A DNA stretch of 63,885 nucleotides, the filler included, from Dugesia japonica (lineage: Eukaryota): assembly GCA_001938525.1 (NCBI GenBank). It is 6 parts of 6 records of this genome, joined end to end, with 100 filler letters (N's around TTAATTAATTAA, not from the genome) between each part and the next. Parts side by side here need not be neighbours in the genome. Positions count along the whole stretch, not along the records: positions 1 to 9,118 come from MQRL01630811.1; positions 9,219 to 17,424 come from MQRL01623860.1; positions 17,525 to 26,261 come from MQRL01576387.1; positions 26,362 to 44,834 come from MQRL01630057.1; 2 more parts are not named here. One strand, 5' to 3'. Below are positions 1,596 to 44,834 of the stretch, piece by piece (the first letter of the stretch is position 1; each line of letters opens with the position of its first letter). The notes beneath the pieces were generated by a model that had not been told where the DNA came from, made no database searches, and saw only the letters and a program-made list of their open reading frames with translations. The translations under genes and the position numbers were made by a program.

Positions 1596-1805
1596 AGTAG
1601 ATGATACAGGGCGGAAATAAAAGATAAATTACCTCAGATTCATATTCATTTTAAAGAATTATCGATTTTTCATTTTTTCTTAAATAATTACATCATAGTA
1701 AAAAATCAATAGACTACAGTCTACCCAGGATAGAAAAACAGCAACCACCCACAAAAATGAAGGGTGAGGGGGGTGGTCTTTTATTTTCGCCCTATATCAT
1801 CTACT
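1596..1805. mobile_element. 210-bp miniature element with 29-bp TIRs and AGTAG...CTACT termini
   Basis: AGTAGATGATACAGGGCGGAAATAAAAGA (1596-1624) is the near-perfect reverse complement of TCTTTTATTTTCGCCCTATATCATCTACT (1777-1805). No TSD visible. Confidence 0.75.
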
Positions 1806-2669
1806 GGCAATCTTGATATTTTTTAAGATATTTATGCATGGTGTGGGCAGTCTTGATATTTTTTAAGGTAATATTACAAGACATATATGCATGTTATGAA
1901 CAGTCTTTATATTTTTTAAGATATTATTACAAGATATCGGACAGTCTTGATTGAAGCAATATTGATTATTTTTTATATTTTACTTTAGATGGTTCAGTGT
2001 TGATATTTTTTTGTAAGAGATTGAGGCATTATTGATTTTTTATAAAANNNNNNNNNNNNNNNNNNNNNNNNNNNNNNNNNNNNNNNNNNNNNNNNNNNNN
2101 NNNNNNNNNNNNNNNNNNNNNNNNNNNNNNNNNNNNNNNNNNNNNNNNNNNNNNNNNNNNNNNNNNNNNNNNNNNAAAATTCAAAATGGTGGCTATATTG
2201 AGTTTTAAAAATTCTCAGACTTGTGATTTTCAGTGTATGTGTGTTGCAGCTGAAATGCTTCCAAGTTGCATTTATGAAAATATATCCATCAAAAAAAAGA
2301 TTTCAAAGAGAGGAGTCTTTGTTATATTTAGATATTAAAATATTCAAAAAAAAAGTTCAAAGAGGGGAGTCTTTGTACAAAAAGTAGATATATTACATGA
2401 TAAAAATATAGCTATTAAAAATAATTAAAGAGGGGAGTCTTTGTGATATTTCCATAATAGAATATAACTTTTGAATAAATATTCGAATTAAAACTTTTCA
2501 TTACAAAATGATAAAAAACATAGAACTTTATTCAAAAACATATTACTAGTGCTAATTTTNNNNNNNNNNNNNNNNNNNNNNNNNNNNNNNNNNNNNNNNN
2601 NNNNNNNNNCATTACAAAATGATAAAAAACATAGAACTTTATTCAAAAACATATTACTAGTGCTAATTT

Positions 2670-2830
2670 TCTATAAAAAAAATCTCATTACAGTTCCAGT
2701 TTTTAATAAAAAATCTCATTACCGATGCCATTTTTAATAAAAAATCTTATTACCGATGTAATTTTTAATAAAAAATATCATTACCGATGTAATTTTCCAT
2801 TAAAAAAAACATATTGACAATGCAATTTTC
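2670..2830. repeat. ~24-bp tandem repeat (AATTTTTAATAAAAAATCTCATTACCGATG-like)
   Basis: About six adjacent degenerate copies. Confidence 0.8.
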
Positions 2831-3211
2831 CAAAATAAAACATATGAGTATATTATTTGATAGTTGCCTTACATTATCTACATAGCGACCATGTATTATA
2901 AAGATTCTGAGTGTATTATAGATTTATTATAGATTTATTAAAGAAATTTACTTTTAAGGTTTTGTATTGGTTTTTAACATTATACATTAATTGTAAGTTG
3001 TACACTCAAAATATTTACTTAAATATACTTATAAGGTAATTTTACAGTTATATAATGTTATATAAAATTGATTTTTTTTCATTAAAATTATAATTATTAT
3101 AATAACATGTATTTTTTCTTATGGTGAAAAATGAAAACAAAAAAAACCCATTTTCAATCAGAATTTGTAGCCCTAAAGAGGACTAGTTTATCGTTATCAT
3201 TTCCTTCTTAT

Positions 3212-3573
3212 TCATAATTTTATCCTTGATAGAAGAAATTGAAAGCATTTCTCTTTCAACATAAATTTTCTTTGATCATTTGTGATTTCAACACAACTCG
3301 ACCACTCGCTCATTGAATCCAAAATGATCCTCTCAATGTCCATCTGTAAGAAATTTGGAATGTTCTCCTAGTAGGAAAACTTCCAATGTTCAGCCAGCGC
3401 CTTGAGACATGGAAACGTCTCCTCTAGTATTTCCTTTACTAAAACTAAAAAGAAAAATAAATAAAATTAATAATAAAATAAATTTTACTTTTCTCGTCAT
3501 GGAAGACTTCCTCTTCTTGTTTTATATCTTCCTCTCTGATAAGGCATCCTTTTTCATATTGAAATAGATCCAT
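3212..3573 (-). pseudogene. Two-exon orphan gene (105 codons, one in-frame TAG) inside the foldback element
   Basis: Exon 3573-3489, 44-nt GT..AG intron 3488-3445, exon 3444-3212. Translation MDLFQYEKGCLIREEDIKQEEEVFHDEKILVKEILEETFPCLKALAEHWKFSY*ENIPNFLQMDIERIILDSMSEWSSCVEITNDQRKFMLKEKCFQFLLSRIKL*. Splicing preserves the frame. Confidence 0.6.
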
Positions 3574-4329
3574 TTAGCATTTTTAAAATATATATAATTA
3601 AAAAGAATTAATAATGTTAGCAATATATAATATTTGAAAGTAAAATACCACAAAGTAATATATTTAATTTATTTAAATTTAAATATCTAAATGTAAATTT
3701 TTATTATTTGTACTTGAGTTGTACTTGTATTGCATCTGTGTTGCAAATTTTCCAAGTTTTTTCAATCAAATTTNNNNNNNNNNNNNNNNNNNNNNNNACT
3801 TATACTTGAAAATTCAAATTTTTTAGTTTTAGTATTACTAGCTTTCCTGTTGAGAACTAATTTACAGATAAATAATCATATTTTACAAGTCTAAGAGCAG
3901 GAAATAACTCTGTTTCAAACCAGTAATTATCTAATCTTGTTAATTTATACAAATTAATTGAAACTCGNNNNNNNNNNNNNNNNNNNNNNNNNNNNNNNNN
4001 NNNNNNNNNNNNNNNNNNNNNNNNNNNNNNNNNNNNNNNNNNNNNNNNNNNNNNNNNNNNNNNNNNNNNNNNNNNNNNNNNNNNNNNNNNNNNNNNNNNN
4101 NTAAATTTATCGCTTTTGACTTTAAATTGAAATGGTTTGCCTGTAGGAAAGCTTACTTTCTTTGCGTCATTTCATTAAATATTGATTATCATAATTAATG
4201 AATTAAAGAGAAACATTAGGGTTTTGATGAATTTAATTCCTTCATTAAAATAATGTATTAAATTAGGAATAAATTAAAGAAAATCGAGGAATAAAAATGA
4301 TAATCAAATTATTCTACTTAAAGAAAACC

Positions 4330-5055
4330 ACTCATAAGCCTTATATTACACAGTTATTAGAGAAAAAAATACATAGTTGTTATGTAAATGATGCACTCAT
4401 AAAACCTATATTACATAGCTGCTAAGTAAATAATACAATGTAAATATACAGATATTACACTCATAAATCATATATTACATGTTAACTATGTAAAAATACC
4501 TTCAACAACCTTATATTAGACGTTTGCTATGTAAATAATTTCTTCATAAATCTTATATTTCATAAACTTTATATTTCATGGTTGTTATGTAAAGAAAAAT
4601 ACATTCATAATCCTTATAATACATGGTTGCTATGCAAATAATACACTCATAAGTCTTATATTTCATAAACTTTATATTTCATGGTTAATATGTAAATAAT
4701 GCACTCAATCCTTATAATACATGGTTGTTATGTAAATATTACATGCAAAACCATTAAACAGTTGTTTTGTAAATAATATACGTGTAAAACTTATAATGCA
4801 CGGTTGATATGTAAATAATACAAGGTAACTATGTGAATAATACATGTTTACTATGTAATAATACACTCGGAATTTTTATAATAGATGGTCGCTATGTAGA
4901 TAATGCAAGGTAACTATTAAATAATATACTCATAAACCTTATAATATATGGTTACTATGTATTAATACACACAAACTTCTTATAATACCAGGTAAATATG
5001 TAAACTACAGACTCGTAAACCATATAATACATGGTTGCTATGTAAATAATACACA
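4330..5055. repeat. ~42-bp degenerate tandem repeat (CATAAACCTTATATTACATGGTTGCTATGTAAATAATACACT)
   Basis: More than 12 degenerate copies; the same unit recurs at about 44560-44650. Confidence 0.85.
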
Positions 5056-5942
5056 AAAAAATCATTATTATGCAAATATCACAAAGACTCCCTTCTTTGA
5101 GGTTTTTTTGATAGATATATTTTTTATAAATGCAACTCGGAAACATTACAGCTGTAACACACATACACTGAAAATCACAAGTCTGAGAATTTTTAAAACT
5201 CAATATAGCCACCATTTTGAATTTTTTTAANNNNNNNNNNNNNNNNNNNNNNNNNNNNNNNNNNNNNNNNNNNNNNNNNNNNNNNNNNNNNNNNNNNNNN
5301 NNNNNNNNNNNNNNNNNNNNNNNNNNNNNNNNNNNNNNNNAAGCAAAAATATTTTTATAAAAAATCAATAATGCCTCAATCTCTTACAAAAAAAATATCA
5401 ACACTGAACCATCTAAAGTAAAATATAAAAAATAATCAATAATGCTTCAATCAAGACTGTCCGATATCTTGTAATAATATCTTAAAAAATATAAAGACTG
5501 CTCATAACATGCATAAATTTCTTATAATATTATCTTAAAAAATATCAAGACTGCCCATAACATGCATTAATATCTTGTAATAATATCTTTAAAAATATTA
5601 AGACTGCCCACACCATGCATAAATATCTTAAAAAAATAAATCTTCAAAATCCAAAAAAAAATTATCTCCAAGATCTCCATCTACTCCTCCTCGTTTTTTC
5701 AGTCTCTTACACACACACACAAAAACACACAAACCCATTTTGACCTACTTTTTAAAAAGAACCTTAACAACCCAAACACAACCCAAAAATCTTAGGAAAA
5801 AAATCGATCACAAAAATCAATGTTAAAAAAACGCAGCTTAAAAATAATTGTGCTCGAATTTTGGCTCATTGCCAAATTTTGCCCGTGTGCCACTCTCTAT
5901 CTACTCATTATTATTATTATTTATTAAAATGATTTTTATAAA

Positions 5943-6755
5943 GTGTGAACTTTCCCACATTAATCTTTACAAAATATTTCGTTTAATTCACATGAAATAA
6001 TGTACTATTTTAGTATTTATTATTGGCGTGTGAAATATTGTACTTCAAAAACATTATTATTATTTAAATTTTTCACACCTTAATCTTTATATTGTTTGTT
6101 AGTTTTAGATGGAATTATAAATATAAACTGTGAATTTTCACACCTTGAACATTACAATTTTTGTGTTTAAATGTACATGAAACGCTTATTATTTAATTAT
6201 TTAAATTCTTAAATATACGTGTGTTCTTATACGTGTGAATTTTCACACCTTTGAAGCAAACTTTTACAGATAAATGCAAACAATGATTGCTTATAGGCGT
6301 ACAAAATTTTCACACATCATTATTAAAATCTATTATAATTAAACTGTTTTTTATGACTAAATTTTCAGATATTGTTGTGAACTTTCACATTTTAATCTAA
6401 ACAAAAGAAAACATGTCTTTGATTTTTTTTTATTGGCGTGGGAATATTCAAAAATATGTTATTGTTATTTAAATTTACTTTTTGAGATGTGAACTTTCAC
6501 AATCTTTTCTTTAAAAATTGCCTCTAAAATCTGAAATATGAGTTTCAAATAGCATTTCTTATCTATGAGAGAAATGAATATTTTTTATTATTTTCTATTA
6601 GTCTATGAAATTTCAAACTTCAGAAATATTATTAATGTTATTATTATTTAAAAGTTTATTTATAAGACATGAATTTTCACACCTTAATATAAACAGTAAA
6701 TTTTCACACCTTTGATGTGAACTTTCACATTTTTATGTAAACTGTGAAATCTCAC
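5943..6755. repeat. Array of palindromic TGTGAA(C/T)TTTCACA motifs with variable AT-rich spacers
   Basis: Clear copies at about 5944, 6129, 6234, 6376, 6488, 6716 and 6743, plus several degenerate ones. Confidence 0.7.
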
Positions 6756-6760
6756 AAGTA

Positions 6761-7900
6761 AGTAGATAGTGGCGCATAAGAACAGTACACATTAGGTAAC
6801 CCACCCTTTTACGTAATCGGATTATTACATACGTGTTTTTGTATTTTTCTTATGTAAATAGGTGGTCGCACACATTTGTATGCATTACATAATGAAATTA
6901 ATTTCGTCGCGACATTATTACGGTACTGGTTTTAAATTTAAATGTATTTAGTTGGGAATACATTTGGCACACAAATTATGTCTTCAGATTAATTTCATCG
7001 GTGAAATATTATGTAATATGATTAACTGTTTTTAAATTTCCTGAGTATATAGTTGGGAAATTTTTTTAAGCTGCAAGTGTTTTTAAATTTTCCAATGTAT
7101 TTAGTTGGGAAAGTATTATAGGCTTATTAGGCGGTAACTGTTCTGAAAATTTATATTTTCTTGTGTATTTAGTTGGGAAAATTTTTCAGACTTTTTAATC
7201 AGCAATGTTTTTTAGGTTCTTTAATTAGGAATTTATTCGGTGAGATCGAATGAGGTCAATGTTATATTGGTTTTAGGTGGTTTTTGTCCAGATATTACTC
7301 GATGAGGTCGAATGTGGTCAATTTTTGGTTGTTTCAGAAAAATTTGGTCCAATATTTCCTCGGGATTGGTAATTTTTTGGGTGATTTAGGTGAAATTAGT
7401 TGAAAATTTTCTCGGTCAAAATTTGAATGGTTTAGAGTAAACTTTAGGTGATTTGATCAAATAATTCTTCGGGATTGCTCGGATTGCTCCAAACATTGGG
7501 TAATTTTTGGATGGTTTAGGTGAAATTGGTTGAAAATTTCTAGTTGAGGTTGAATCTGGTCAAACTTGATTTGTTATAGATGAATTCGATAAATGTTTTC
7601 TCGGGAATGGTTAATTATTTGCTCACAATGGTATTTGTTAGACGAATTCGGTCAATTACTTTTTCGAGTTTGTATAATTTGGTCAATTATTTACTCAGTT
7701 TAGATAATATTGGTCAATTATAAACTCATGTTGGTTAGTTTTGGATGGTTATTTTTGTCTAGTTATGGTCAATTACTTACTCACAAGGGATAGATTTAGG
7801 TGAATTTGAGGGATCATTTCCTCGGTTTGGTCAGCTTTGGTTGAATTTTAAGGAAATTCATGATAAAAGTCGAATTTGTTTAAATTTAAAAATTTTTTAA
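6761..7900 (+). mobile_element. Left end of an AGTAGATAGTGGC-terminus element with repeat-rich subterminal region
   Basis: AGTAGATAGTGGCGCA at 6761, followed by repeated GTATTTAGTTGGGA and GGTCAA/TTCTCGG motifs. Right end not found. Confidence 0.55.
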
Positions 7901-9118: not shown

Positions 9119-9218
9119 NNNNNNNNNNNNNNNNNNNNNNNNNNNNNNNNNNNNNNNNNNNNTTAATTAATTAANNNNNNNNNNNNNNNNNNNNNNNNNN
9201 NNNNNNNNNNNNNNNNNN
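9119..9218. other. Artificial scaffold-joining spacer
   Basis: 44N-TTAATTAATTAA-44N (stops in all six frames); five identical copies in the window. Confidence 0.95.
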
Positions 9219-9998: not shown

Positions 9999-11133
9999 AA
10001 CTAGTGTTTTGATATAGTTAGATTTCTAGGGAAATAAGTTCAGTCTCTAATGGTTTAAATAATTTTGCAAATCTTTTATAATTCATGTTGATAATCAATT
10101 TTTAATTGTATCAATAAATTATTTTTTAATTACTTTTAATGAAGTTTTTTTAAAGCAAATTATAAAAATTAATCTAACTTAATTTTGCAATTTCTAACAG
10201 TAATTTCTGAAAATATTAATTCACCTGCTTAGAAGATAATTGTTAAAAAATGAGAATGATAAAAATAAATAAAGTTTCCAAGAAAATTCGAGATTTGTGG
10301 GAACGTGTAAATATGAAAACGAAACGTAACATCGTAAAATTTGACAATGATTTAATAATTAGTATAATTCAATATAGAAATAAGCACTTCTACCTTTTCA
10401 CCACAAGCTTAACAAAGAGCTTGTTTTTTTAAATAATACCTGTAGTCAATTATGCATAATATTCAAAATATGTAATATAAAATTAATAAGTAATCATTAC
10501 CAGATAATGATCGAAGCTAGAAAAACAAGAAAGATTAGTCTTATGTATGCTCAACAAAGATTTGAGACATGCAAAAAAGCTTTGATTTTGAAAGAAAAAT
10601 AGATGTCAAAGATTTAGACAGCTTATGTTGAGTATATTGATTGTAAAATCATTACAATGAATTTTTTTAAAAATATTGTACAAATTAAAAATACAATTTC
10701 CTTAAAATATTAAAAAATTTATTGACCGATTAAAAATAACTTTTCCAAGAAGAAATAAGAGACAATAAATGTATTCATATTTTAGCATTATTTTGAAATG
10801 TAGGTCAAATCATAATCTGTAATAATTGATATTATGAAAAGAACTGGTATAATGAAAATTGCAATTCAGAATTGGCATGCGTCAAAATCGAAAATTTTAA
10901 GATTTAATACGCAACGACGTAGAAAACTTTCATAGATAAAAAACAAATATAATATGATTACTGAAAATTACAAATAATATATAATAAATAGGTAGTATGA
11001 AAATAATTGAGAACTTAGTCCACGTGTTTTATTGTAGTGGTGTTAAATAAACTTGTAACTGCGATCAATAAATTATCCCTTAAAGTTTACTAAAATCTTT
11101 GAAAAACTTTATTAAAAATAAAATATAATGAAC

Positions 11134-11143
11134 AAAAGGATAC
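11134..11143 (-). other. U12-type (minor spliceosome) 5' splice site
   Basis: GTATCCTTTT immediately after the GN/Y exon end matches the RTATCCTTT consensus. Confidence 0.75.
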
Positions 11144-11264
11144 AATTTCCAATTATTAAAACTGTGATAAAATACAAAGACGACAATGATCCAATTCCAA
11201 ACGGATTCCCGAGAGACAGTATTCCTTTATACATCTCACTATGCCAAGCTGTTGCTGTCATTAT
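11144..11264 (-). CDS. Voltage-gated Ca2+ channel alpha1 (Cav1-like), domain II pore loop-S6 exon
   Basis: TTTCAG acceptor; IMTATAWHSEMYKGILSLGNPFGIGSLSSLYFITVLIIGN aligns without gaps to Cav1 [40 protein letters not shown]; in phase with exon 13530-13737; donor GTATCCTTT. Confidence 0.85.
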
Positions 11265-11390
11265 CTGAAAGACAATTTGTCGTTATCTACTATAAAAAGA
11301 GAAAATTTAAATCTCATTCTTTGATTTTTTGAAATAAATATTTTATAAAAACTAAAATTCAAGATTTCCATAATTCTTAGACTCATCTAA

Positions 11391-13737: not shown

Positions 13738-14432
13738 CTTAATAAAATATAAAATAATGTTAATAATTATCAATGGATTATGATAGACCAGGATTATGGC
13801 ATATGCTAAGACTTATTTGGTAAACTATTCAAAAAATCGTATATTATGACTTAAAACCATCCAAACAACTTTGATGCAATCCATAAAAATATGTTTATAT
13901 TAATGAATTAAGATTTCTAAGAGACACCCCAGTTATGGTAATGATATCATAATTTTATTTTTGTAATATACCTTTTCAAAAGTATTCATATCTTGTTAAA
14001 ACATAAATAGTTGTATTTAATTTATTCATTTTACGATCTTCTGGTAGCTAATACAGCTATTTAAATGAACAGTTCTTAAGACTCTTATTCTAATTTTCAG
14101 ACACACCAGATTGTTACCTTTCCAGACGTTCATTTTGCACTTGGATTATCTCTATTTTATTATGCTCAAATTTTTTTCATTAATTATGAAATATTTCAAT
14201 GAATTGCATAATAAAACTTTTATTCAGACTAATTTTGATTGAATCTAAATTGCAAATAAGTAGATAGATAGTAACGCATGCAGCCAAATTTTTTTCCCCA
14301 GGATTTTATTTTATTAAAGTGAATAAACCCCGATTTTAAGCGTTTTCAAGGTCAACTGTTCAAAATTTTAAGCGATTTAATTTGATTGCGTGTTTTGATG
14401 ACGCAATAGCAACGTGCTAATGAAAAAATCAT

Positions 14433-14616
14433 TTAAAATAAAAGCTTTGATCAATATTTGTTTGTATGGTTTTTGATAACAATTGATTAACAATAGAATT
14501 GTTATCAAAAACCAAAAAAACAAATTTTGATCGAAGCTTTTATTTTATATGAATTCTGAAAAACGATCAATGGTTACGTCCAACAATTGTTCTCACAATA
14601 ATTGCAATTGTAAAAT
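14433..14616. repeat. Dispersed palindromic repeat (~115-bp hairpin plus conserved tail)
   Basis: Arms AAAAGCTTTGATCAA..TTTTTGATAACAATT / AATTGTTATCAAAAA..TTGATCGAAGCTTTT, then AAAACGATCAATGGTTACGTCCAACAATT. Other copies at about 22698-22880, 45940 and 44935. Confidence 0.75.
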
Positions 14617-14863
14617 AACTGATTTCATTAATATTNNNTAATTATTTCACAAAAAAAATTCGTTCCACACTGTTCATAAAATTTTAACACATAAAATACA
14701 TAATGGAAAATGAGTAAAATACAATTGTGACAGAACAAAGAGATTTGTCAAATTTTCAACAATTAAGCACAAAAGTATAAATCACATGAAAAACCAATAA
14801 AATCATGCAGTAATCATACAAAGATTTTAATAAAGTTATTTAAATTTTATGGACTGTATAGAC

Positions 14864-15108
14864 CAGTGATTCTTAACCAGTGCTCCGTGGAGCATTTTTG
14901 TTCCGCAACCTTGTCTCAGGTGCTCCAACAAATAATTACCATTACAATTATTTTATGTATATAATTATTATTTGATTTGAATAAATGAAAAGTTAGATAT
15001 TGAAATCATTATTAATTACTGAAATCAGTAATTATTAGTACTGATGCTCCGGTAAAGTTTTATGTAATTAAATATGCTCCACCACCACTAAAAGGTTAAG
15101 AACCACTG
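14864..15108. mobile_element. hAT (Charlie-like) MITE
   Basis: TIRs CAGTGATTCTTAACC/GGTTAAGAACCACTG; perfect TSD GTATAGAC (14856-14863, 15109-15116). Confidence 0.92.
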
Positions 15109-15119
15109 GTATAGACTGC

Positions 15120-15490
15120 AGGTAGATAGATAGTGGCTATTGTAATCATTCCCTCCAGAGATAGAAAAACCTTCAAGGTCAAAGTGGCTACATATACTCG
15201 ATTCTGATTGGTGGTAAATATTTTCAAGGTCAAAGTGGCTACATATACTCGATTCTGATTCATAGAATATTTCAGGTCGAATAAAGGTAAGTCAAGGTGT
15301 AATGAAAGTAGGTCAAGGTCATTTCCATGACAACTCTTTGTAGTTCAATATCAACTATCATTCTGACAGGCTTAATAATTATCCCCGTGCAGACTTATTA
15401 TGATTAATCCTCGTGCAGACGTAATATTATTAATCCACACACAGACTTAATATCAAAATTCACCGGGCAGACTTAATATTATTAATCATT
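15120..15490 (+). mobile_element. Left end of an (A)GGTAGATAGATAGTGGC-terminus element with internal direct repeats
   Basis: Terminus-like motif, duplicated TTCAAGGTCAAAGTGGCTACATATACTCGATTCTGATT, then ~28-33-bp GCAGACTTAATATTATTAATCC repeats. Confidence 0.5.
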
Positions 15491-15579
15491 TAATAGGTTT
15501 AATATTTTTTTGTTTTAATGCTTTATTTATTTTCTTTTTATTTACTTTACCTTTTTGTTTTTTTTAAAATTTTTTTTAT

Positions 15580-17424
15580 TATTAATATCTGATAACTTTG
15601 TGATTTTAAAATTTATTTCCAATATGCGGCTCAGTATATAAAACTAAATCTGAGCTCGCTTCATATAGCTATCTTCTCCTTTAACTGTTTTATTTTTATT
15701 ATCGTTTATATTGTTCATAACCTGAAATTTTTTAATAATTATTTTCTTATACCCCCCTTCTTCAGAAACTTCTAGGTTTTTTCCACAGTTATTTCTAATT
15801 GCTGTTCAATTTCTCCTTGTACCGCATACCGCCTTTCGTGAATTCTCTCAATTATTCGATAAGGTCCTTCAAATCTGTCTTGACTTTTATTTCTTTTTTC
15901 TATCTTGATGAGTACAAAATCGCCCACTTTGAATTCTCTATGTGTATTCCCATATGGAGTGTTTTCTTTAGTTTTATCTGAAACGTCTGACTCATACCAT
16001 TTTTCTCTGCTAATCTTCTTTCCAGCTGGGCTCTTTCCAGTCGTCTTCTGCTTTTTTGCGTTCATTATAAATACTATTTCTGGTAACAGATCTGCCCAAT
16101 CTGTTGTCTTTTTTTCCTTGAAGTGTTGCATTAATCAAATCTTGAATTGTCCTGAACTGTCTTTAAATTTTTCCGTTTGCATTATGATTATAGGAACTCG
16201 AAAAGCAAAGTTTAATATCTAATTTCAGTGAAAACTCTCTCATAACTCTATATTCAAAAGATTTTCCACAATCGAGTCTTAGTTCTCTTGGAAATCCAAA
16301 TCTCAATATCCACTTTTCAAAAATAGCTTTTCGTATTGTTTCCTCGTCTTGTCTAGGCATTGGTATAAGAACCGAATATTTACTGTAATGGTCTATTATT
16401 CCAAGAATGTATTTTTTTCATCCACTTATTTACCGCAATGGCCTACAGATATTTGTGAATGACTTCATACAAATTGGTAGCTTCAAATCTCTTTGTCTTC
16501 TCTTTAGTTGCTGTCGCCATTACTTTGATCTTCTGACAAATTTCACAACTACAAACTATCTTCTGTATTTGTCTCCACAAATACTTCGCAATGTATTTGT
16601 ATCTCATATATTCGTACATCTTTTCAACTCTTGCATGACATAGTAATTTATGTATTTCTACTATTGTCTTATGTATTTTATCCGAAATTTTTATTTTCTT
16701 GATTAAATCTGTTTCCTCAGAAATGTTTAATTGCTTTTCCTTTTCCTTTTCAATCATGTTCAGTATTCTCGTTTTCATCTTCCCTTTCTTGGCATCTTCT
16801 TGTGACATTTGACATTTTATACATCTCACAAATAACATATCTCTATCTAAAACATCTCTAAATAACATATCTGCATTACTATGTTAAATTTCTTTTCTAT
16901 ATTCCTAAACCATGTCTAGACTACTCAATAATTGATCCATGTCTGGAATTGTGAAGTAATTGGTTACTTTGTTGTCATCATGAAAGTTAGAGCTTTATGA
17001 TCTATTCTAAGAGTAAATCTTCTACCGTACAAATAGTGTTTGAAATGCATGCAGAAATAATAAACAGGCAACAACTCTTTCTCTTCCTTTCTTATCTCTC
17101 TGTGACAATACTGCTCCAATTGTAATAAAACTGGTATCTGTATCTAATATAAATTCTTTGTTTATGTCTGGAAAACACAATATTGGTGCAGTCGTTAGAG
17201 ATTTCTTCAGACCCTCAAAAGTATAGTTTATTTCATCTGTTCATTCTAATTTCTTGTTGCTTGGTCTGCTACACAACTGCTCTAAGATCCTTGATTTTCT
17301 TGCGTAGTTTTCTAAAGACTTTCTGTAATAATTACATATTCCTAAGAAATTACGTAGCTTCATCACACAGTTAGGTTTGCCAAATGTTCTTATTGCCTCT
17401 ATTTTAGACGGGTCAATTCTAACA
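15580..17424 (-). mobile_element. Ty3/gypsy 3' half (RT connection, RNase H, integrase, PPT, 3' LTR start), decayed
   Basis: FILDTD, HFKHYLYGRRFTLR, integrase HHCC (H..LCH..C..CQ), LRLDCGKSF, GPY/F motif DRFEGPYRI, and PPT AAGAAGGGGGG at 15762-15752. Confidence 0.9.
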
Positions 17425-22000: not shown

Positions 22001-25000
22001 GTAACCTCATTTAATGATATATTGATTTTAGTTTAAATCGCAGGTAAAAATAAAGTGCGCAGAATAGAAACTTTTTTTTAATTAATTGCATTAATTAATT
22101 TATTTTTGTTTTATTTATTGACGTCTTTCATTCTTATATTATTCTCCGTCTCATATCGTTTTTGGTTTTGAACACTATGGCTGCATAATTTATTACATTT
22201 ATAAAGTAACTTTTAGTAACAAAATGTTCAATTAAAAATATTTCGTATTAACTTTTGAAATTTATGATTTTCATTTAATATTTATTGTCTATTTTAATTT
22301 AAATAAAAATTCTTTATTAATGCTTTTAAAATTGACGTTCCATTTTTCCATTGGTAATTTTAATTTTCAGGAAATAATTAAAATAAAACCGTGTAAAAAT
22401 TTAATTTTTCTTGCTAAATAATTACTTTTTAATAATTTATTAAATGGGATTCTGTTTCACTCATTAAAAGGGATTTGTGATTAAATTAATTTAAAATTTG
22501 CTCCATTATTATTTATTAAAAAAGGTATTTTTTAACTAATTTTATTAAAACATTTTTAATTCGTAAATTGAGCTGGAAATTATAATGGTTTGAAATTATG
22601 CTATTTATATTTCGATAAATTTTGTTAAATTTTAATTCGTATTTTTAAAGTTTCGAAATGTAAAATAAATATATACAAATAATGTGAATTCATTCAATAT
22701 AAAAGCTTTGATCAAAATTTAGGTTTTATTTATTGATATCGAATTGTTATCCAATATCAATNNNNNNNNNNNNNNNNNNNNNNNNNNNNNNNNNNNNNNN
22801 NNNNNNNNNNNAATGAATTCTATAAAACGATCAATGGTTATGTCCAACAATTATTCTCGCAATAATTGCAATTGTAAAAAATAATGTAAAGTTATTTTTG
22901 AATTATTAATTAACAATGTTGAAAGGTTGAAATGACAAATTCGTTTTAAACAAAAATGATGTTTACTAAACAGAAAATGTTTATTAAATTTATTATAAGT
23001 ATGGTAATAATTTGAACTGTCCATATATTATTCAATCATGATTTTTTACAGTTATTTAAAATTGTGTAACAACTACAGATAAAAATCTTGTTTTTTTGAA
23101 TTAGTTAAGTATCAGGTAAATCTGAAAATTCGTGCGGTTTTCGAATGTCGTATAAATCACAGTATCAAAGTGTACATATAAAAATATATATTTAATAAAA
23201 GTTTATATATAGATTTTATTAATTTTGTTATAATGAACCATTTTCTGTAATGATTTATCTTTTTTAAATTTCAAAACTACTGCCGATTTTGTTTGCTGTT
23301 GAATATGTTTGCTGTATGAATATAAACTGGGGTCAAGTACTTCAGAAGCATGCCACACAATCTGTTTAACATTGGAACCGAATACACGATTCAGTGGAAA
23401 ATGAAAAACGATCCGGAAGACCTACAGTGATTTATAACAATGAATTAAAAAATCTATTGAAAAAATTCAAATTTATGATGTTGGAAAAGTGTTGTTCATT
23501 ATAATGTTGAATTTTTTGATGAATAAAATCTTATTGGTTGATTTTTTACTTTAAATTTTTTTTGACTTTAAATGTTTGATAAACAAAAACGAACTTTCGA
23601 ATTTACCTGATAATTAAAAATACTTTAATTAATTTACAAAAAATATATAGTCATTTTCCAAAAATTCTATGGTAAATGTTTTAAAATTGAAAACCGTTTT
23701 TTGGATTATGAGAAATCTGATAAACTAAATAAGGTGGTACCTCTTTTTATAATCTAGGCGAGTAATGGGGAACGTATGACACACGAGTCAGAGGTGAGAT
23801 TCGATCTCATTTTGGGTGAACCGCATAGACNNNNNNNNNNNNNNNNNNNNNNNNNNNNNNNNNNNNNNNNNNNNNNNNNNNNNNNNNNNNNNNNNNNNNN
23901 NNNNNNNNNNNNNNNNNNNNNNNNNNNNNNNNNNNNNNNNAACCGGATGTTAACATATAAATCGATGTTGCGTAGCAAAGATGCATAGGGAAAAATCCAA
24001 AATACATTGTTCCAATATTGGCATCAATATAGAAATGTTAAGAATTGCACCGTAAAAAGATTAAACTTTAGTCATGGAATTTTATTCTTACTCGAGTGAC
24101 AAAATGGCAAATTCTGGAAACGGTTTCGTTATTATTTCGTAACATTTAATTACTATTGTTTTTATTATTTTTTCATAAATGTACATTGTTTTTCCTTTGC
24201 TCATTTTGTACATTTTTTGGTTGATATACTTTAACGAAGAAAATTATAATGCTTTTAAATATAAATCCTTTTTTTACCATGGTTGCAAATATCAAAAAAT
24301 TATGAATATTTCTGTGACCACACCAGAATTTAGTTAGGGTATTTCAAAATTTTGTCACGTCGAGCTCTAAAGATTCGCCATCACTGATCTAGACAAAACG
24401 TGATAATATTTTTTATAATATTGTCAGTTTATAAATTACAGTAATCAATTCGAAAATAATTAATCATAACCCTATGGTAATTAGTTTGAAATATGAGCCG
24501 CAAGAAGTGGTATCTATAAATTAACACTGCGCAATCATATATGAAAATTATAATGGTGTACTGATCCATGAAAATTAATTTACCTATTTACTCTGTAGCA
24601 GCAAATGTGGTNNNNNNNNNNNNNNNNNNNNNNNNNNNNNNNNNNNNNNNNNNNNNNNNNNNNNNNNNNTAATTGACTCACGTTTATGCATGTTTGGCTA
24701 AGCACACAGTACAAATAAACTCATACGTGGGTTTTTAACTGACTCTTGTAAATTAAACGATATTTTGTCTGTATTTTTGTTTTTATTGAATCGAGTTTCA
24801 GATTCAGCTAATAAATAAATACAATAAAAATAAAAGAAATCAGACCGAAGAAATTTATTTTATCTTATAGTATTTTTATAATTTGTAATCAATTTATATT
24901 TTGAATTCATAAAATATATTTTACAAAATAATATTTTTGAATTAATGTAATTTTACTCTATACATTTCTTCAATTGTACACCAATAATAATATTGATGAC

Positions 25001-27037: not shown

Positions 27038-29521
27038 TAGGGTTTCTCATTTCTCAGTAAATATTGATTCCCGGGAAACGGGAATACTAAAATGCCATTC
27101 CTGGGTATTCCGGAAAATTACGTCATAATTTTATCGCAAAAAATTCCTGCTTTTTGTAAAAAAAAAATGTGAAAAATCAAATTTTTTCTAAAAATATTTA
27201 TGTTTAAAAACATTTTTTTACTGTCTGCAAACAAACTTAGTTTAAATATGCAGATTAAATATTTTANNNNNNNNNNNNNNNNNNNNNNNNNNNNNNNNNN
27301 NNNNNNNNNNNNNNNNNNNNNNNNNNNNNNNNNNNNNNNNNNNNNNNNNNNNNNNNNNNNNNNNNNNNNNNNNNNNNNNNNNNNNNNNNNNNNNNNNNNN
27401 NNNNNNNNNNNNNNNNNNNNNNNNNNNNNTTTAATATTATTTAAAACATAACGTTTATTATATCATATTACGTTTAATAATATTTTTATTAGGTTTGCAA
27501 GAAAAATTAAAACTTAATAGTTAAATTAGATTCGCAATTTCTGTGTAGATTTTTTTACTTTTAAACCACTATTTATATCAAAAAAAATATTTTTGATTGC
27601 CAAAATTCATGTCAGTTATTACATTTATAAAAAATGTTAATTTAAGACGTTAAATTTTTTCTAACAAATTTTTTAAAATATTTTCCAAATTTATTAGGTG
27701 GGTGGATTAATTCTAGACCTCTTCAACAACTTTTAATATTTATCTTATAACAAATAGACACGTTAAAATCAATCAAAGTATTTTCCATCGTTAGGAATGA
27801 CTTTCCCCCATAAATCTGGCAACATGGATATTCCGGGATGATAAAATGATTTTTCTTTAGAATCGATTCCGCTAAAAACCCAATTTTGGACATCTTCGTA
27901 CTAATTGAATTGCATATTTTTCAGGGAATGTTCCATTGACCGGAATAAATGAAAATCTGTTGGAGTTATATCTGGAGAGTACGCTGGGTGCGGAAGGCTT
28001 TCTCATTGCAAGTCTAACAATGTTTGCTTGACGATTGAAGAAAGATGTGGTCTCGCATTGTCATGCAAAAGAATGACTTTGCGTCTATTGTCTTCATTTA
28101 ATCTTAGGGGTTGATGTTAATATCGTTCTTCTGTAACTGTTTCCTTTGATTTCAAAAGTTCCTGGTACACGACACCTTCCATATCCCACCAAATACAAAG
28201 CATGACTTTCTTATCATAATTATTGCTCTTTGCGGTGGACGCTGATGCCTGTCATGGATCAAGCAATGATTTTTTCCGTTTGGGGTTATGGAAATAAATC
28301 GATTTTTCATCGCCTGTAACAGTTCGACACAAAAAACTATTTTTTCTCTGTCTGGCAAGAAATGATGTGGATATTCTTAAACGATTACAGATAGCACTTA
28401 CACTCAAATTATAAGAGATCCATTTTCCCTCCTGAATTTTTCCTAGCTCATGTAGCCGTCTGGAAATTGTTGATCGATGTGTGTTTTGTATCTTAGCCAA
28501 CTGTTTCTCTGTTTGAGTGGGGTTGTCTTTCAATAAATCTTGTAATTCACTATCTTCAAACTTTTTTAACTGACCTGGTCTTTCTTTAGCATTTCAAATC
28601 GAAATCGCCTGATTTAAATCTTGCAAACCAGAATTTGCAGTTAGACAACGATGGAACATCATCAGTGTATGTTACCTCAAGCATTTTCTGCGATTCCGCT
28701 ACAGATATCTTTAAGATTAAGTGTTAATTAATTTATTAATCTCTTATTCACCCCAACTATGTTTAAGCCTATTAATGCATCAGTTATTATTTAATAAAGT
28801 CGCGTCTGATTAATTTATCAGTATCTAGTAGATTACAAATTTTCTTGACTGAATTATCATTTATAAAGCCATTAATTCTGTCAATTCTCAACAATATTTC
28901 GCCAGTAGGCGTTGTGCACATCTTTACTCTTNNGTCGAATCCTTCTAAAACTTTAATATTGCTCATTTGGAAGAATATTGGACCACTATTAAATAGGCGT
29001 TCCTATTATTTTACACATTTTTTTACTGTAAAAAAATACTAAAATTTTAAGAATATCTAAGTTAGCTATAAATTACTACTAAAGTCCAAAGATAAATAAA
29101 ATTTATAATAATTATATTTAATATTTATATTTTAATATTATATTAAGCATAACGTTTATTATATCATATTACATTTAATAATATTTTTATGAGGTTTGAT
29201 AAAAGTAAACTTGCAAGAAAAATTAAAACTTTAGAGTTAAATTAGATTCGCAATTCAAATTAAATGAACTATACTTCTGTGTAGATTTTTTTTACTTTTA
29301 AACCACTCTTTATAGCAAAAAATATGTATTTTTGATTGCCAAAATCCATTGGTCAGTTTTTACATAGATAAAAATGTTAATTTAATGTTAAATTTTTTCT
29401 AATACATTTTAAAAAATATTTTTCTTATTTATCTCTAAGATTAAGTGTTAATTAAATTACCCGGGAATGAACTTTTGTTTCCCGGGAAATCGAGAACGGG
29501 AAATCTCGAGGAGAAACCCTA
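27038..29521. mobile_element. Non-autonomous hAT element with internal duplication, nested mariner and an exon-like ORF
   Basis: TIRs TAGGGTTTCTC/GAGAAACCCTA; perfect TSD CTAATAAT (27030-27037, 29522-29529); CCCGGGAA subterminal motifs; 27430-27690 duplicates about 29130-29420. Confidence 0.9.
27692..28710 (-). mobile_element. Decayed mariner transposase nested in the hAT element
   Basis: HTH region, GKWISYNL (WVPHEL equivalent), RTVTGDEKSIYF, LLHDNARPH, HPAYSPDITPTDFHLFRS; TATTAGGTG TIR at 27692. Confidence 0.9.
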
Positions 29522-36820: not shown

Positions 36821-38374
36821 CTAGTGCTCATTTGGGGATTTCTTGGATTGAAGCTTATTTTCCTTTGAACTACGCTTCGCGAATAGTTTCTTCCTCTTCT
36901 TAGGAATTTCTACTTCGTTTACTAATTCCTTGACCAGGAATTTATTCTTGTCGAATCTTTGGGTTACTACCAGTGTTTTACCTGAGTGTTCGTGCACATA
37001 TACCAGTGAAGATAACACTTATCTCCAATTTATTTTCGTTAATATTTGATGTTACCAATGCGAATTGTTCAATTTCTTGCCCACAATAATATCTTACTGG
37101 CAATTTAAACTTAGCATCTGGTTTCTGCCAAGTTTTCGGATCTTGATCACTCGCATCTTTGAATGCTTTCTCCATACTGTATCTAGGAGTACCTACTATA
37201 GGGTCGGAACATTTTCTAGCTCCGTATTGGTATGAATGGACATAAGCGTCTCCTGTTTCAGGATCCTCGAATACTTCAGATGATAATACTGCCGTTTTCT
37301 GTTTNNNNNNNNNNNNNNNNNNNNNNNNNNNNNNNNNNNNNNNNNNNNNNNNNNGTTTTCTGTTTAAATACTTGCATTTGATGCGGTTTGGGTTGCCCTC
37401 TGTGAAATACGAAGGTCCCTTTTACATCACGTCCGGCATATTGCGTAATCTTGTTCTCCAACTTGTTCTTTGTTGGATTCTTCCAGTAGGTGTTAATCTT
37501 ATAATCGTCCAAGTCATTAAATTCGCTGTAAAATGAAGTATTATCATTTTCCGGCAAGGCTAATGCCGCCATATGAAGTTTCTTGATCTCGGGATATAAT
37601 TTATCTATGAACGACTCTGAATCTTTTTGTATTTCCTTTTCTGGTACTTTTTCTTTTTCTGGTACCTGGGAAATTTCTATTTCCTGTATAGACTCGTCAA
37701 TTTCCTGTAATGATATGCTGGAGGGTCTCCTAGCTCATCCTCATTTTCCAGAATTTTTGAGTCTTCAGATACTTCCATTTTCTGAACAACTATGTTGCTC
37801 CATCCCTTTGTTCAGGATGTATGTGGTCCACCCACTGATCCATAATCTTTAAATAAATTCTACGTATAGTTCTTGCATCCCGTTCACTTTTTAAATCTGA
37901 TTTGATTAGCGTTTCACATGGGGCTTTCTACTTTCAGATACCCAAGGTGTAAACACCATGGTTTTTTAACAACCTTTTTTCTAAACAAGGCGCGTTTGCC
38001 AAATCTCGAATACCTAGTATTCTATTTGCAGGAAATTCTACTGCATTTNNNAAATCCTTCAAATTCATACCAACTAGAATGCGGCTATCTAAAATCTTCT
38101 TTATTTTCTCTTTAAAATCTTCGCCATCCCAGTTTCCTCTGATTTGAACTTCTTTCAACCCCTGTGCATGCGCTTGGAAATGTTTGACGCATTTACGTGG
38201 AGTAATTATCGAGTTGATTATCAGTTCACCGTCAAAATTAAGCACGGTGGCTGAAACTACAGCTGATTCTAAACTTTCTTTGAGTGTAACATAGTGAAAA
38301 GCCACAAAACATGTTACACGATTTTCCTTTTGTTGGGTGAGCGACAATCGCACAAAAAAAGAGGGGTCCCCCAA
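36821..38374 (-). pseudogene. Frameshifted ~500-codon gene: REX4/ISG20-like DEDDh exonuclease fold, acidic linker, unknown C-terminal domain
   Basis: SAVVSATVLNFDGELIINSIITP..V..F.AHAQGL, KIKKILDSRILVGMNLKD, IRDLAN and ERDARTIRRIYLKIMDQW follow REX4-family motif order. The four listed minus-strand ORFs join via stops and frameshifts. Confidence 0.7.
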
Positions 38375-38401
38375 AATTGTTCTGAAAAAAAATGTTCCGA
38401 T

Positions 38402-38420
38402 GCGCCACTATCTACCTACT
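38402..38420 (-). mobile_element. AGTAGGTAGATAGTGGCGC element terminus
   Basis: Reverse complement matches the terminus at 6761 (GTAGATAGTGGCGCA). Confidence 0.65.
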
Positions 38421-40919
38421 CAACTAGATACATTTATAATCTTGTATTCATTCTATTGAGGTTTCATATAATCTCTAGCAATCTGAATTCACTAAAGACT
38501 ATCTTTTGAGCATCCATCTCCCTCCTCACAACGAATGGTCCTCCAGCATTATCATGATGAATTTCTAATTAAAGTTATCAATTTTATTATATGAAGTAGT
38601 GAACTAAAATACATTTATGATATTAATAATAATAATCTAAAATAACAGAATGAATAAAATGACTCAATTATATTGGACATCAAATTAATATTTTCACTAC
38701 AAATCCAAGATAATTCTGCAATACATTAAGCAATTTATTAAACAATAATAGGAGATTTCAACCACCACCTATCGGTCGATAGAGACGTATTTATTTCTAG
38801 AACTCAACAACCCAATTCGTATTCATCTCATTGCAACTTTTAACCCCATCTCTCATTATCATCTTCGTTCAGTAAAACTTTTATTACCACCACTTTCACC
38901 CACTGCTCTCATCAACTTTCATCATCTTTCATATTCCTTTATTAACATCATTAATTCACAACACCTACGTTTATCCTTAGCCTCTCACATAATATTAACA
39001 TCTGGCTGATCTAACCATCATACACTTTAATAGTCATCTCATATTCCTCATCGTATTTTACAACTCGTCTCAAATAATCACAACCATTTACTATTCATCT
39101 CGCATAGTCATAAACATTTTTAATAACATAATTTCTTTCATAATCAGAAACATTTTAATAACATGATTTTATCAGAGTGGATGATTTCGTAGCATCGGAT
39201 CTCTGAGTTCCGATGATCATCATTGCTAGCTTTACCAGACAATGACGATCACCGTATCAGTCTTCCGTTCACATAATAAATGATAATATTAAAATAAACA
39301 ATCTAAAAATTACTTATCAATTTTTCATTTTTAAATTATACGTGTAATTTTTAGAGTTAAAATGATATCAAAGTTGTGTGTTTATAAATAACTTTATAAA
39401 ATTTTTTGAGTTCTCATCATTTTGATATTTCATGTAGGCACCCACTTCAAATATTTTCATACTTCTCTGAATCGTCAATCGCAGATTCTACATAAATGAC
39501 TAAATTTAGTCATGATTTTTTTTTCATTTGCTTATGCACAATTTCAGTATCACATATGCCTGCCGGTGCTCAATCGGCATCTAAGATTTTTAGATAAAAA
39601 ATTTTATTCAGTAGGCAATGTGCGGTGCTCACCCGACACAATTGCTTGTAAATGCTACTACACATTTTTCTATAACAGCAGTACATGGTGCTCACTCGAT
39701 GTCTGCATGCTCATATCTTTGTGCAGGGCACATATAATTGTAAATGTCAATGAAACTCTGCCTCTAATAATTTCGATTTGACACACAAAGGGTGATTAGT
39801 CTGAATGCTAGTCTGAACTCGAATTCCGAGTCAACGGCTCCGCTCCGAAGATCTGGATTTTTTGGGGACACCAGATTTTAAATTCATCGCGGGGTTTTAC
39901 CAGGTCAATTACCTTAGACTTAATTTTATATAAAGTTCGACCCCCCTAGATTTAATCATATAAGATATCAACTCACCTAGGGTAAAACCCCAACATGAAT
40001 TTTGGGGGCTCAGCCGGGATTTGAATAAAGTTTTCTTAAAAAAATCATCATTGAGAAGCGAAAACTATCAAAATTACATAATAATCCATTAATAGATAAA
40101 TAATAATTAGCCGTCAATTCGGCAAAATGATAAAGGTTCAAAAAAAAATTTTTTTAAATGGATACTAATTCTGATAGAAGGAACGTTGGGTTGGAACAAA
40201 ATGTGTCCNTTATATTAGGTTAAATACTATGAATTAATTCCATCAAAATGACTGTGGTTAAAAAATTATCCCTGCAATACTTCAAAATTATATTGGTAAT
40301 ATCTATGATATAGAGGAGCCTGGATTATGTTGATAGGATAAGCAAATTTTATTTGCAGATTAAGGTCAACCACTTAATTACAAAATTCGATCAAGATTTT
40401 AGGACTTTAATATGGGTTATTTTAAAAGGGTATTATCTGTACCAACTAAAATTGTATTTCTGCGACACGGTATGTGTAGAGATTTTAACAAGGGAACGTT
40501 AGAAAACTTTTAAAGTATCCGAGCGGAATAATTTCATAATTATAACGGGGAAAAGTTTTATAACCCTGCTATAGAACAATCGTTATTACTAAACAACACC
40601 GGCAATCTACCGCCATACTAATTATAGCATAAAATCTATTTAAATTTCGGTGCAATCATTCAAAGTATTAGAACAGGAATGCCCAGTTGAGTATATCAAA
40701 GCTTAATGCCAATTATAAAGTTTGCCGTACATTTCCCGCCTAATCGAATATAACACTTACTCAATCGCTATTTAACCTATATAATTACTACGTATTTTAA
40801 ATGTAAACTATCTATTCGGGAAATTTAATTATTGGTTGATACATATTGGGGATAATTATAAGGTATTTAATACAAAAGAAAAACGTAAAAAAAAGTTAAA
40901 GGTATTAAAGAAAAACAAA

Positions 40920-42710: not shown

Positions 42711-43731
42711 TCGNNNNNNNNNNNNNNNNNNNNNNNNNNNNNNNNNNNNNNNNNNNNNNNNNNAAAATGTTATCATGAAAAAATTTGTTTTTTATTTATT
42801 ATAATAAATTTATCTATATGAAAGCCTTAGGTGTTAATTTTTTTTGTTGTTTGTAGGTCAATTGCACTACTTCAGTGACTGTTAATACTTGGATAAGAAA
42901 TTATTTGTTAACTAACAACACAATTTGGTTTATTTTTGTGTAAAGCCAAATAAAATGGAGAGGGTTTTCCTTTCTTCCCTCCGTAATATGGATAATTTAG
43001 TAACACAAATTGTTTATGTAAATAATAATACAAAAATCTGTATCTAAAATGAAAGATAAATCGATTTATTTTTAATAACCATAAGTCGAAATATTACTCG
43101 AATTAAAATCATTTATTTAACAGAAAACAACAAATTACTTGAAATTTCTGTAAAAGGAAAAATCCATATGTCTGTAAAATTTTCTTTTTCAAATTCCATC
43201 AGTCACGGGTAGTGAATTTAATCCAATGGATAGTTGCCTCATTTACAAATTAGTAGTATTATTACTATCATTATTATTATTATTATTATCATTATTATTA
43301 TTATCATTATCGTTATTTATGTCCGTATCATCAACCTTATTACTATTATCATCGTTATCATTATTAGTATTATTGATATTATTATTGTTGTGTTGTTGGT
43401 TATTAAGGTTATTGGTAGGATTATCATTCGCGTTGTCATTANNNNNNNNNNNNNNNNNNNNNNNNNNNNNNNNNNNTATTATAATTATCCGAAACTATTA
43501 TTATGATTATTAGAATCAGAGAATGGTGTGTTCATACGATAAAACCTTTAATAGAAAGAATAGGGATATTAACAAATAGTGACGTGTTTAAATTAAGTTT
43601 AATTTAATGGGTTAGTATCCTGTTTTGGGAACGAGTCCGCTCATTAATAGTGTACGGCAGCAGCAAAACTTTTCGGGTGGATTAAAATAAGAATCATGGT
43701 TTGATTTGTAATTTTATTTTTACTATAGGTA

Positions 43732-43989
43732 ATGCCAGCAATACTACGGGACACCCTTCGCCAAATAAAGAAACAGCGGCGAGCTGCTCGCTTAAAACAA
43801 TTAATAACCCACTATATAACGAGGGGCAAGGTGGAACACCCCGACAAAACAGATCTCCAGGGTTTCGTTGAGATGTTTCCACTCGAGCATAAAGTGGATA
43901 TAGATGAGGAGTATCCGATCTCGTTAAAGTCCTGTGGAATCATTCGCATAAAAATACATTTTGTTTTGACTTACATGCAATTCTTATAA
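43732..43989 (+). CDS. Hypothetical 85-aa protein
   Basis: ATG-initiated ORF in a locally GC-richer island, AATAAA right after the stop; no recognised family. Confidence 0.35.
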   Translation: MPAILRDTLRQIKKQRRAARLKQLITHYITRGKVEHPDKTDLQGFVEMFPLEHKVDIDEEYPISLKSCGIIRIKIHFVLTYMQFL

Positions 43990-44105
43990 AATAAACTCTG
44001 TCTTACTTTATTTTTAAATTACTCTCTAAATAAAATCTAAATAGTAACTAGCTGCATTTTTACTTTAAATAAAACTTCATTGGTTGTTATTGTAGAATCA
44101 GCATT

Positions 44106-44435
44106 ATGGAATATAAATGGGAGGTGAGTTTGGATATTAATACGGGCCGAACGGTATTTAAAAGGTACCAAAACCCGTACAATATCTCCGCTGAACACGC
44201 AGCAGATGAAAGACAGTGGAATGCGACGGAAAGGAGTGCCTACTACAGTTGGTGTGGCCCGAGAAGGGACCGCGTGGCATTCCCCCCAGCTGCACTTTCT
44301 TTTGAAAGATACACCGACGTGCCTCAGGTAGAACGCCGGTGGCATGATGGACCTTCCTTAATCGGTAGAAGGGGGATAGCGGCATACGAGCCTACTTTTG
44401 GCAAGCAACCAAAATTCGAGCCCACCTATATTTAA
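44106..44435 (+). CDS. Hypothetical 109-aa protein abutting a long-TIR-family end
   Basis: Intact ATG-TAA ORF, much GC-richer than host exons; no recognised family. Confidence 0.45.
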   Translation: MEYKWEVSLDINTGRTVFKRYQNPYNISAEHAADERQWNATERSAYYSWCGPRRDRVAFPPAALSFERYTDVPQVERRWHDGPSLIGRRGIAAYEPTFGKQPKFEPTYI

Positions 44436-44479
44436 GCAGTTATCTCGGGACCCGGGGGGCTCGGAAACACATTACGCTT

Positions 44480-44834
44480 GAGCTGCGTTTTTTTAACTAT
44501 GGTTTTTGGGTTGGTTTTATTTTTCTAAGATTTTTGGGATCAAAAAATTTTTGATTTCTATGTAAATAATATAAAGTTGCTATGCAAATAATACAATCAT
44601 AAACCTTATATTTTATGCTTGCTATGTAAATAATATACTCATAAGCCCTATAGATATCAAAATATTTACTTATGTTATTTNNNNNNTAGACTTATAAGTT
44701 ATTTATGGAAAGGTACCATGATTTAATGAATTTTATAATAATGTTCTATGTTTTTTTTATAAATTTGATGATAAAAGTTCTCAGCTAATATGTTTTTATA
44801 AAGAATTGTCACTACTAATATGATATTTATAGAA
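44480..44834. mobile_element. Second copy of the long-TIR family subterminal sequence
   Basis: AGCTGCGTTTTTTTAAC..CTAAGATTTTTGGG is the reverse complement of 5780-5838; has the 42-bp repeat unit; 44740-44830 resembles the reverse complement of 2490-2560. Confidence 0.7.

Follow-up and report, generated by a model that had tools for sequence, protein, structure and literature searches.

AGTAG-ended repeats of Dugesia japonica: an abundant, non-autonomous transposon family with Maverick-like ends

The window analyzed in this study is a 63,885-nt stretch of the genome of Dugesia japonica (GCA_001938525.1), comprising six AT-rich scaffolds (21–33% GC) joined by N-spacers. Spliced animal-type host genes (Ion_trans and AMP-binding matches) and many decayed transposons are present in it. 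The subject here is a set of repeats whose ends begin with AGTAG, found on three of the six scaffolds, together with the coding sequences beside them (Table 1). A preliminary description had listed seven related termini and interpreted them as a family of Polinton/Maverick derivatives that carry unrelated genes as cargo. Our analysis showed that the AGTAG termini are related and real; they are best explained as the ends of several DNA elements, present in very many copies and for the most part broken. Public sequencing runs, whose contigs were placed on two regions of the window, served to assess copy number and junctions.

Six of the seven sites start with AGTAG, namely 1596(+), 1805(−), 5905(−), 6761(+), 14259(+), and 38420(−), and their location on three separate scaffolds was confirmed. 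The seventh site, 15120, begins with AGGTAG. The ends have approximately 20 bp in common, AGTAG-(RTAG)n-TRRC, which takes a variant form in the 210-bp element. The end is a simple AG/RTAG repeat with a varying number of units. The consensus first written for it, AGTAG(GTAG/ATAG)ATAGTGGC, is exact at one of the seven ends only (38420). The motif patterns were chosen post hoc, and the expectations were taken from shuffles. The sequence GTAGATAGTGGC with at most one mismatch was matched 3 times (0.05 expected), and a further end-motif pattern 12 times (2.56 expected). A looser pattern recovered five of the seven ends and a partial site at 41392 (6 vs. 0.89 expected from local shuffles). The ends at 6761 and 38420 share 16 identical bases. 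Past approximately 20 bp most ends are unlike, and z exceeded 4 in 2 of 28 segment pairs, of which one consists of the two arms of the 4.1-kb element and the other is a gappy, non-credible alignment. Subterminal tandem arrays, attributed earlier to most ends, lie behind three of them (5905, 6761, and 15120). The end patterns were also found in 5, 0, and 23 stretches of viral contigs, every one internal to its contig, and these were taken as chance. Literature searches, including "agtagatag" combined with transposon terms, did not return a description of the family; Repbase, Dfam, and subscription papers were outside their coverage, and the family may well be catalogued there already.

The summed depth of genomic contigs changed sharply at the ends. 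Across 5905 it fell from 28–31k (bin 5844–6024) to 128–141 (6025–6205), and across 6761 it rose from 200–250 (6387–6567) to 23–30k (6749–6900). The bin 6568–6748 has an intermediate depth of 6–7k, so the boundary at 6761 is placed inexactly. The change between inside and outside was more than 100-fold at both sites, which are the two ends with usable depth, and supports the reality of the ends independently of the motif. Contigs identical to the locus had a depth of 5–13, indicating approximately 7,000–15,000 copies of the 5905 end and 2,400–4,600 copies of the 6761 end. A mixture of unrelated repeats, grouped at seven sites by a motif selected afterwards, is very improbable. It would agree with the single exact consensus and with the unlikeness of most ends beyond 20 bp. 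The repeats behind 15120 would also fit, as their proposed kinship with the 53-bp repeats was rejected (score 23 vs. a shuffle maximum of 32). However, the motif counts are far over shuffles, the 6761 and 38420 ends are identical over 16 bases, and the depth steps occur at two sites.

The sole nearly whole long element is the 4.1-kb element at 1806–5905. Its two arms mirror each other at 89–94% along a kilobase or more (arm length at least about 1.05 kb), with inverted matches at 1815–2047/5353–5587 (94%), 2176–2338/5065–5225 (89%), and 2843–2919/4858–4934 (92%), and their arrays are built of 53-, 41-, and 31-bp units. The outermost 297 bp of the right arm have no counterpart in the left arm, which starts precisely where the 210-bp miniature element has its right end. 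A genomic contig covers this junction (1518–1835) with 0 differences. A contig of one run is exact over 1575–1835 and diverges further left, and a contig of another run matches from 1518; this may reflect an insertion polymorphism located 21 bp beyond the 210-bp element. The spacer between the two outward-facing ends (5906–6760) consists of degenerate repeats and includes a palindromic TGTGAA-TTTCACA core.

Table 1. AGTAG-ended repeats and adjoining coding sequences in the window (ORF, open reading frame; TSD, target-site duplication).
Feature	Position	Strand	Description
210-bp miniature element	1596..1805	.	29-bp terminal inverted repeats (27/29); AGTAG starts; no TSD
Left arm of the 4.1-kb element	1806..2947	+	53-bp and 31-bp tandem arrays; depth 39k–490k
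Orphan gene, ~105 codons	3212..3573	−	44-nt GT-AG putative intron (3488–3445); in-frame stop 3370–3368
High-copy non-coding interior	3672..4360	.	Upstream of the orphan gene; common to the family; depth 30k–104k
Right arm of the 4.1-kb element	4361..5905	−	Tandem arrays of 41/83/103 bp and of 53 bp; ends at 5905 with AGTAGATAGAGAGTGGC; depth drop
Unpaired end AGTAGATAGTGGC	6761..7728	+	Followed by 52-bp and 31-bp arrays; depth rise; second high-copy subfamily
Unpaired end AGTAGATAGATAGTAAC	14259..14425	+	Short; unrelated palindromic repeat next to it
Unpaired degenerate end AGGTAG...	15120..15580	+	~45-bp and 26-bp repeats; inner limit approximate
DEDDh-exonuclease-like gene copy	36821..38356	−	5′-truncated; stops and frame changes; without catalytic residues
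64-bp terminal stub AGTAGGTAGATAGTGGCGCAT	38357..38420	−	Abuts the exonuclease fragment without a gap; no partner end detected
Two orphan ORFs, 85 and 109 aa	43732..44435	+	42% GC; acceptor-like site before each; multi-copy
Arm-related sequence without AGTAG end	44478..44834	+	Reaches the scaffold end; depth 109k–157k

The description of these repeats as an abundant non-autonomous family with Maverick-like ends holds: the depth is high, the long arms are built of repeats, the end is of the AG(T) type, and no core gene was found. We lean towards non-autonomous derivatives of Mavericks (Polintons), whose membership is unproven. Mavericks are described as ending in 5′-(AGT)2 or (AG)3, with terminal inverted repeats (TIRs) of 46–1,447 bp in vertebrates and core modules flanked by variable regions of accessory ORFs, and they are reported to be abundant and expanded in planarians. 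The most frequent vertebrate end, (AGT)2, agrees with AGTAG in 5 of its 6 bases, and the arm falls inside the TIR range, as measured on one element whose left outer 297 bp are missing. What favors a Maverick derivative is the simple-repeat end of AG(T) type, together with how long the arms are and how abundant Mavericks are reported to be in planarians. As far as they are described in PMC8097293, PMC10748475, and PMC6431247, Mavericks resemble the present elements in their 5′-AG...CT-3′ simple-repeat ends (AGTAGT vs. AGTAG), TIR length, and variable small ORFs near the ends. Unlike them, the present elements are without pPolB, integrase, ATPase, protease, and capsid genes, show no 6-bp TSD, reach thousands of copies, and have a 210-bp miniature form. 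Kolobok, piggyBac, and mariner elements target TTAA or TA. TTAA was at the outer flank of none of the seven ends and neither TTAA nor TA flanks any end, so these classes are disfavored.

Several points weigh against the Maverick assignment. At the sixth base, where (AGT)2 has T, the ends carry A or G. Direct repeats of 2–12 bp were searched for at the two testable end pairs (1596/1805 and 1596/5905), and neither pair had a TSD; read as 6-bp TSDs, 2/6 and 3/6 bases matched. The TSD test is weak because both pairs involve a rearranged junction. When 139 frame segments from the three scaffolds were scanned for Pfam families, neither a DDE transposase nor pPolB, ATPase, or capsid was detected, and the single rve match is part of a gypsy pol. 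Highly decayed core-gene remnants could escape such a scan, and a non-autonomous form would in any case be expected to lack the core genes. Lizard Polintons are described with fewer than 10 copies and none non-autonomous. Copy number can be gauged only roughly from depth, which is a sum over contigs. A number of copies in the thousands, arms made of tandem repeats, and a MITE (miniature inverted-repeat transposable element) form occur more typically in foldback DDE families. Polinton membership is unproven because no TSD was found at the two testable pairs and no core gene was found, both of which absences had already been remarked on; on the ends and the arm length, the Polinton-derivative identity is likely.

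A foldback cut-and-paste family, Mutator/Phantom-like as Tm1 or P-like as Galileo, with its transposase elsewhere and the AGTAG likeness due to chance, is the leading alternative, possible though doubtful. The high copy number and the composite tandem-repeat TIRs (53-, 41-, and 31-bp arrays) would suit it. Transposase-driven adjacent deletion leaves a precise truncation without TSD, and the 210-bp element adjoins a precisely truncated arm with no TSD. P-type TSDs are 7–8 bp long. However, neither these nor the 8–10-bp TSDs of Mutator-like elements (MULEs) appeared at the two pairs, both of which are rearranged. No transposase family was found among the 139 segments, and simple AG/RTAG ends with varying unit number are as in Mavericks. 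In the available account of Tm1, a Mutator/Foldback element of root-knot nematodes (PMC3169594), variable composite tandem-repeat arms, MITE-like forms, non-autonomous forms with captured interiors, and truncated copies without TSD are all described. Tm1 differs from the present elements in that its transposase is known, its end motifs are asymmetric, and 45 of 53 complete elements have TSDs of 8–10 bp.

If the Maverick assignment is right, the elements would be internal-deletion derivatives of Mavericks that encode no transposition enzyme and are moved in trans by intact Mavericks elsewhere. The Maverick integrase would recognize the AG...CT ends and excise and insert the element, and the protein-primed polymerase would initiate on the short AG-T-AG repeat; slide-back priming is a property of such polymerases. 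Only the ends would be needed in cis, because the integrase would recognize the ends and the polymerase would prime on the terminal repeat. In the family name Polinton-1N1_DR, the letter N denotes a non-autonomous family. Polinton-1N1_DR exists as a named family (PMC9341505), and a model of Maverick mobilization has been outlined (PMC6431247, PMC8097293). Insect Polintons that are without polB and carry transposable elements (TEs) are described as remaining mobile (bioRxiv 10.1101/2025.02.07.637071). Partial Polintons, as described from insects and as TIR remnants in C. elegans (bioRxiv 10.1101/2024.01.15.575659), likewise retain ends and have lost core genes, and they share with the present elements nested retroelement insertions and TIR remnants at rearranged sites. 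The polB-less insect Polintons keep most core genes, whereas the present elements have none, and their arms are modular tandem arrays.

The three coding regions exist where the preliminary description had placed them, and no transposase family is among them. The orphan at 3212–3573, which is probably spliced as judged from its sequence, is the only ORF enclosed by arms. Its depth was 540–1,000, approximately 1% of the arm depth, corresponding to roughly 60–180 copies, and its RNA depth was 0–0.43. A word-indexed protein search with its second exon and Pfam, PDB, and PHROG comparisons yielded no homologue; PDB matches with E-values of 0.17–0.19 and PHROG matches with E-values of 0.005–0.09 were rejected as noise. 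Most simply, the enclosed orphan is an accessory ORF kept by a small subfamily. A 660-nt genomic contig (depth 94) shares only 3600–3772 and has 485 nt of other sequence replacing the gene, which hints at alternative interiors behind one upstream region.

The ORFs at 43732–44435 had a genomic depth of 1,700–3,700 and an RNA depth of 0–0.42. They are outside the arm fragment at 44478–44834, which has no terminus, and the claim that they are cargo is not supported. The word-indexed protein search found no homologue of the 109-aa orphan, and no family was found for either ORF. A single-sequence fold was uninformative (predicted local distance difference test, pLDDT, 54.8). RNA depth was below 2 on all three coding regions (two RNA runs each, sampled at 6–26%), and no spliced joint was among those listed for the three regions.

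We consider the strong form of the cargo claim quite improbable; under it, a single vehicle family of Maverick descent would be actively picking up unrelated genes, the retroelement exonuclease among them, and spreading them. All three ORF regions are multi-copy, one orphan lies between arms, the contig with the replaced gene hints at different interiors, and mobile TE-carrying Polintons have been described (bioRxiv 10.1101/2025.02.07.637071). However, the 43.7–44.4 kb ORFs lie outside an arm without terminus, RNA depth is below 2, and the exonuclease is a truncated copy that lacks a second end and belongs to a family resident in gypsy elements. The junction between the stub and the exonuclease was bridged by no contig among the 16 of approximately 25,700 pieces listed. 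The cargo-shuttling proposal thus keeps the arm-enclosed orphan and loses the exonuclease and the 43732–44435 ORFs. The most promising "cargo" gene is probably a displaced fragment of a retrotransposon unrelated to the family, and gene shuttling is therefore not shown.

In the exonuclease fragment, homology sets in at 38356, a distance of 64 bp inward from the AGTAG end, with approximately 185 N-terminal residues gone. Its depth was 560–2,000, and 515 in the bin holding 38420, so no thousand-copy arm signal adjoins it. The query was read with X at stops, and a full HMMER scan (E-value up to 0.001) found 78 related proteins, mostly 400–600 aa long with the domain at approximately residues 190–370; one of them, P0010 (TIG repeats), was spurious. 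Word-indexed protein searches returned nothing, and the full HMMER scan alone revealed the family. In the alignment against viral contigs, 0 of 102 candidate stretches were confirmed. Pfam RNase_T was matched by 15 of the 33 relatives scanned, and all five D-E-D-H-D positions are kept in 21 of 36 aligned rows. The active site is lost in the window copy, in the six top-scoring relatives of the alignment through P0006, and in P0013. In tblastn on the window, P0002 matched with an E-value of 5e-38 and P0081, the protein of locus L006, with 7e-19.

The relatives point to a retroelement origin. Two of five related metagenome loci, the two long enough to read, have a gypsy context: in L006 (gene at 10001–11305) and L009 (9959–11449) the gene follows, on the 3′ side, a polyprotein of 3,000 aa that includes viral fusion glycoprotein, protease, reverse transcriptase, RNase H, and integrase domains, and env stands before pol. 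In L010 (gene at 1006–2514) the end of another ORF is upstream of the gene, and L007 and L008 are 2.5 kb each. Long inverted repeats and the motif TAGATAGTGGC were found in none of the five loci. The gypsy polyprotein context led us to reject a candidate reading in which the exonuclease is an accessory gene of Polintons, comparable to "mael" of insects. The window fragment is likely, from its sequence relatives, a 3′ accessory gene of a GAG-ENV-POL Ty3/gypsy element and not of the AGTAG family by origin, and its designation as cargo is withdrawn; it also lies 64 bp from an end with no partner end. Certain points weigh against this origin. The five loci were obtained through a five-member alignment, and four of them come from one assembly. 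The loci with context are only 25–31% identical to the window domain, and the nearest relatives are on 2-kb contigs without context. In tblastn the L006 and L009 polyproteins matched other scaffolds only, and the upstream part is absent beside the window fragment.

On the simplest reading, an envelope-bearing gypsy element inserted inside an AGTAG element, and a later deletion joined its 3′ part to the stub at 38420. The 15120 locus shows the same nesting, undeleted. There the AGGTAG end extends approximately 460 bp to a putative polypurine tract and 3′ long terminal repeat (LTR) of a minus-strand gypsy pol. This end is interrupted by a gypsy element, an ordinary nested insertion with an inferred LTR.

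The GAG-ENV-POL layout is described from flatworms, nematodes, and bryozoans (PMC13524379), and env precedes pol in L006 and L009 as in the Platyhelminthes errantiviruses of herpes simplex virus (HSV) gB type in that account. Rotifer LTR retrotransposons are described with DEDDy ORF3 genes (PMC5408684), and the present family is similar in having a DEDD-family exonuclease ORF 3′ of pol. Unlike rotifer DEDDy ORF3, it is ISG20/REX4-like DEDDh and has an extra N-terminal domain, predicted to be cupin/AlkB-like. The words "exonuclease", "DEDD", and "accessory" do not occur in the main text of PMC13524379, nor "cupin" and "AlkB" in that of PMC5408684 (supplements aside in both). The model of P0002 (mean pLDDT 74.4) had ISG20 as its best structural match (E-value 6e-8) and weaker cupin/AlkB-fold matches (about 1e-3), which probably belong to the N-terminal domain. 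Envelope-bearing gypsy elements are thus predicted to carry a separate 3′ cupin-plus-DEDDh gene, possibly the most novel item of this study.

The long-arm sequence had been said to recur at 44480–44834. The fragment there has a 61-bp piece in common with the 5905 arm (score 70 vs. a shuffle maximum of 44), as well as the 41-bp repeats at 72–79%. It has no AGTAG end, lacks the first 64 bp of the arm, and has its repeats in an orientation relative to the arm piece opposite to that in the 1806–5905 element. The arms are modular and rearranged, because these modules differ in relative orientation and the end piece is gone.

Other features were observed around the remaining ends. The motif TCAAGGTCA, which we take to be a nuclear-receptor (NR5A/ERR)-type site, occurs 4 times in the window (0.37 expected), at 14346, 15173, 15224, and 15313, and every site is at most 200 bp inside the 14259 and 15120 ends. 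A hAT-like miniature element with a perfect 8-bp TSD (14856–15124) lies directly outside the 15120 end. A dispersed palindromic repeat is present on three scaffolds (14426–14608, 22683–22916, and 45874–45993). A very high-copy repeat with a depth of 180–200k (bin 39720–40004) is located at 39800–40050. A short frame at 28790–29002 (−), beside a decayed mariner-like element (~27700–28700), has no Pfam match; it presumably resembles a KilA-N domain motif.

For now, these repeats amount to an abundant, uncurated family whose general kind is known. It seems unlikely that intact Mavericks drive a huge satellite population, down to 210-bp MITEs, in which a 20-bp AGTAG end suffices, repeat modules resembling transcription-factor sites are swapped, and interchangeable small genes are carried behind a shared upstream region, as Pack-MULE-like gene shuffling by a virus-like element. 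If the Maverick link is true, the minimal ends required in cis for Maverick mobilization, which is still an in silico model, would be defined by the gene-less copies, which number in the thousands, and by the MITE form; these would also help explain the large "Maverick" share of planarian repeat annotations. The more distinct by-product is the gypsy accessory gene, with a predicted cupin domain, an ISG20-like nuclease, and branches with intact and lost active sites, whose protein is a candidate RNA-processing or anti-silencing factor.

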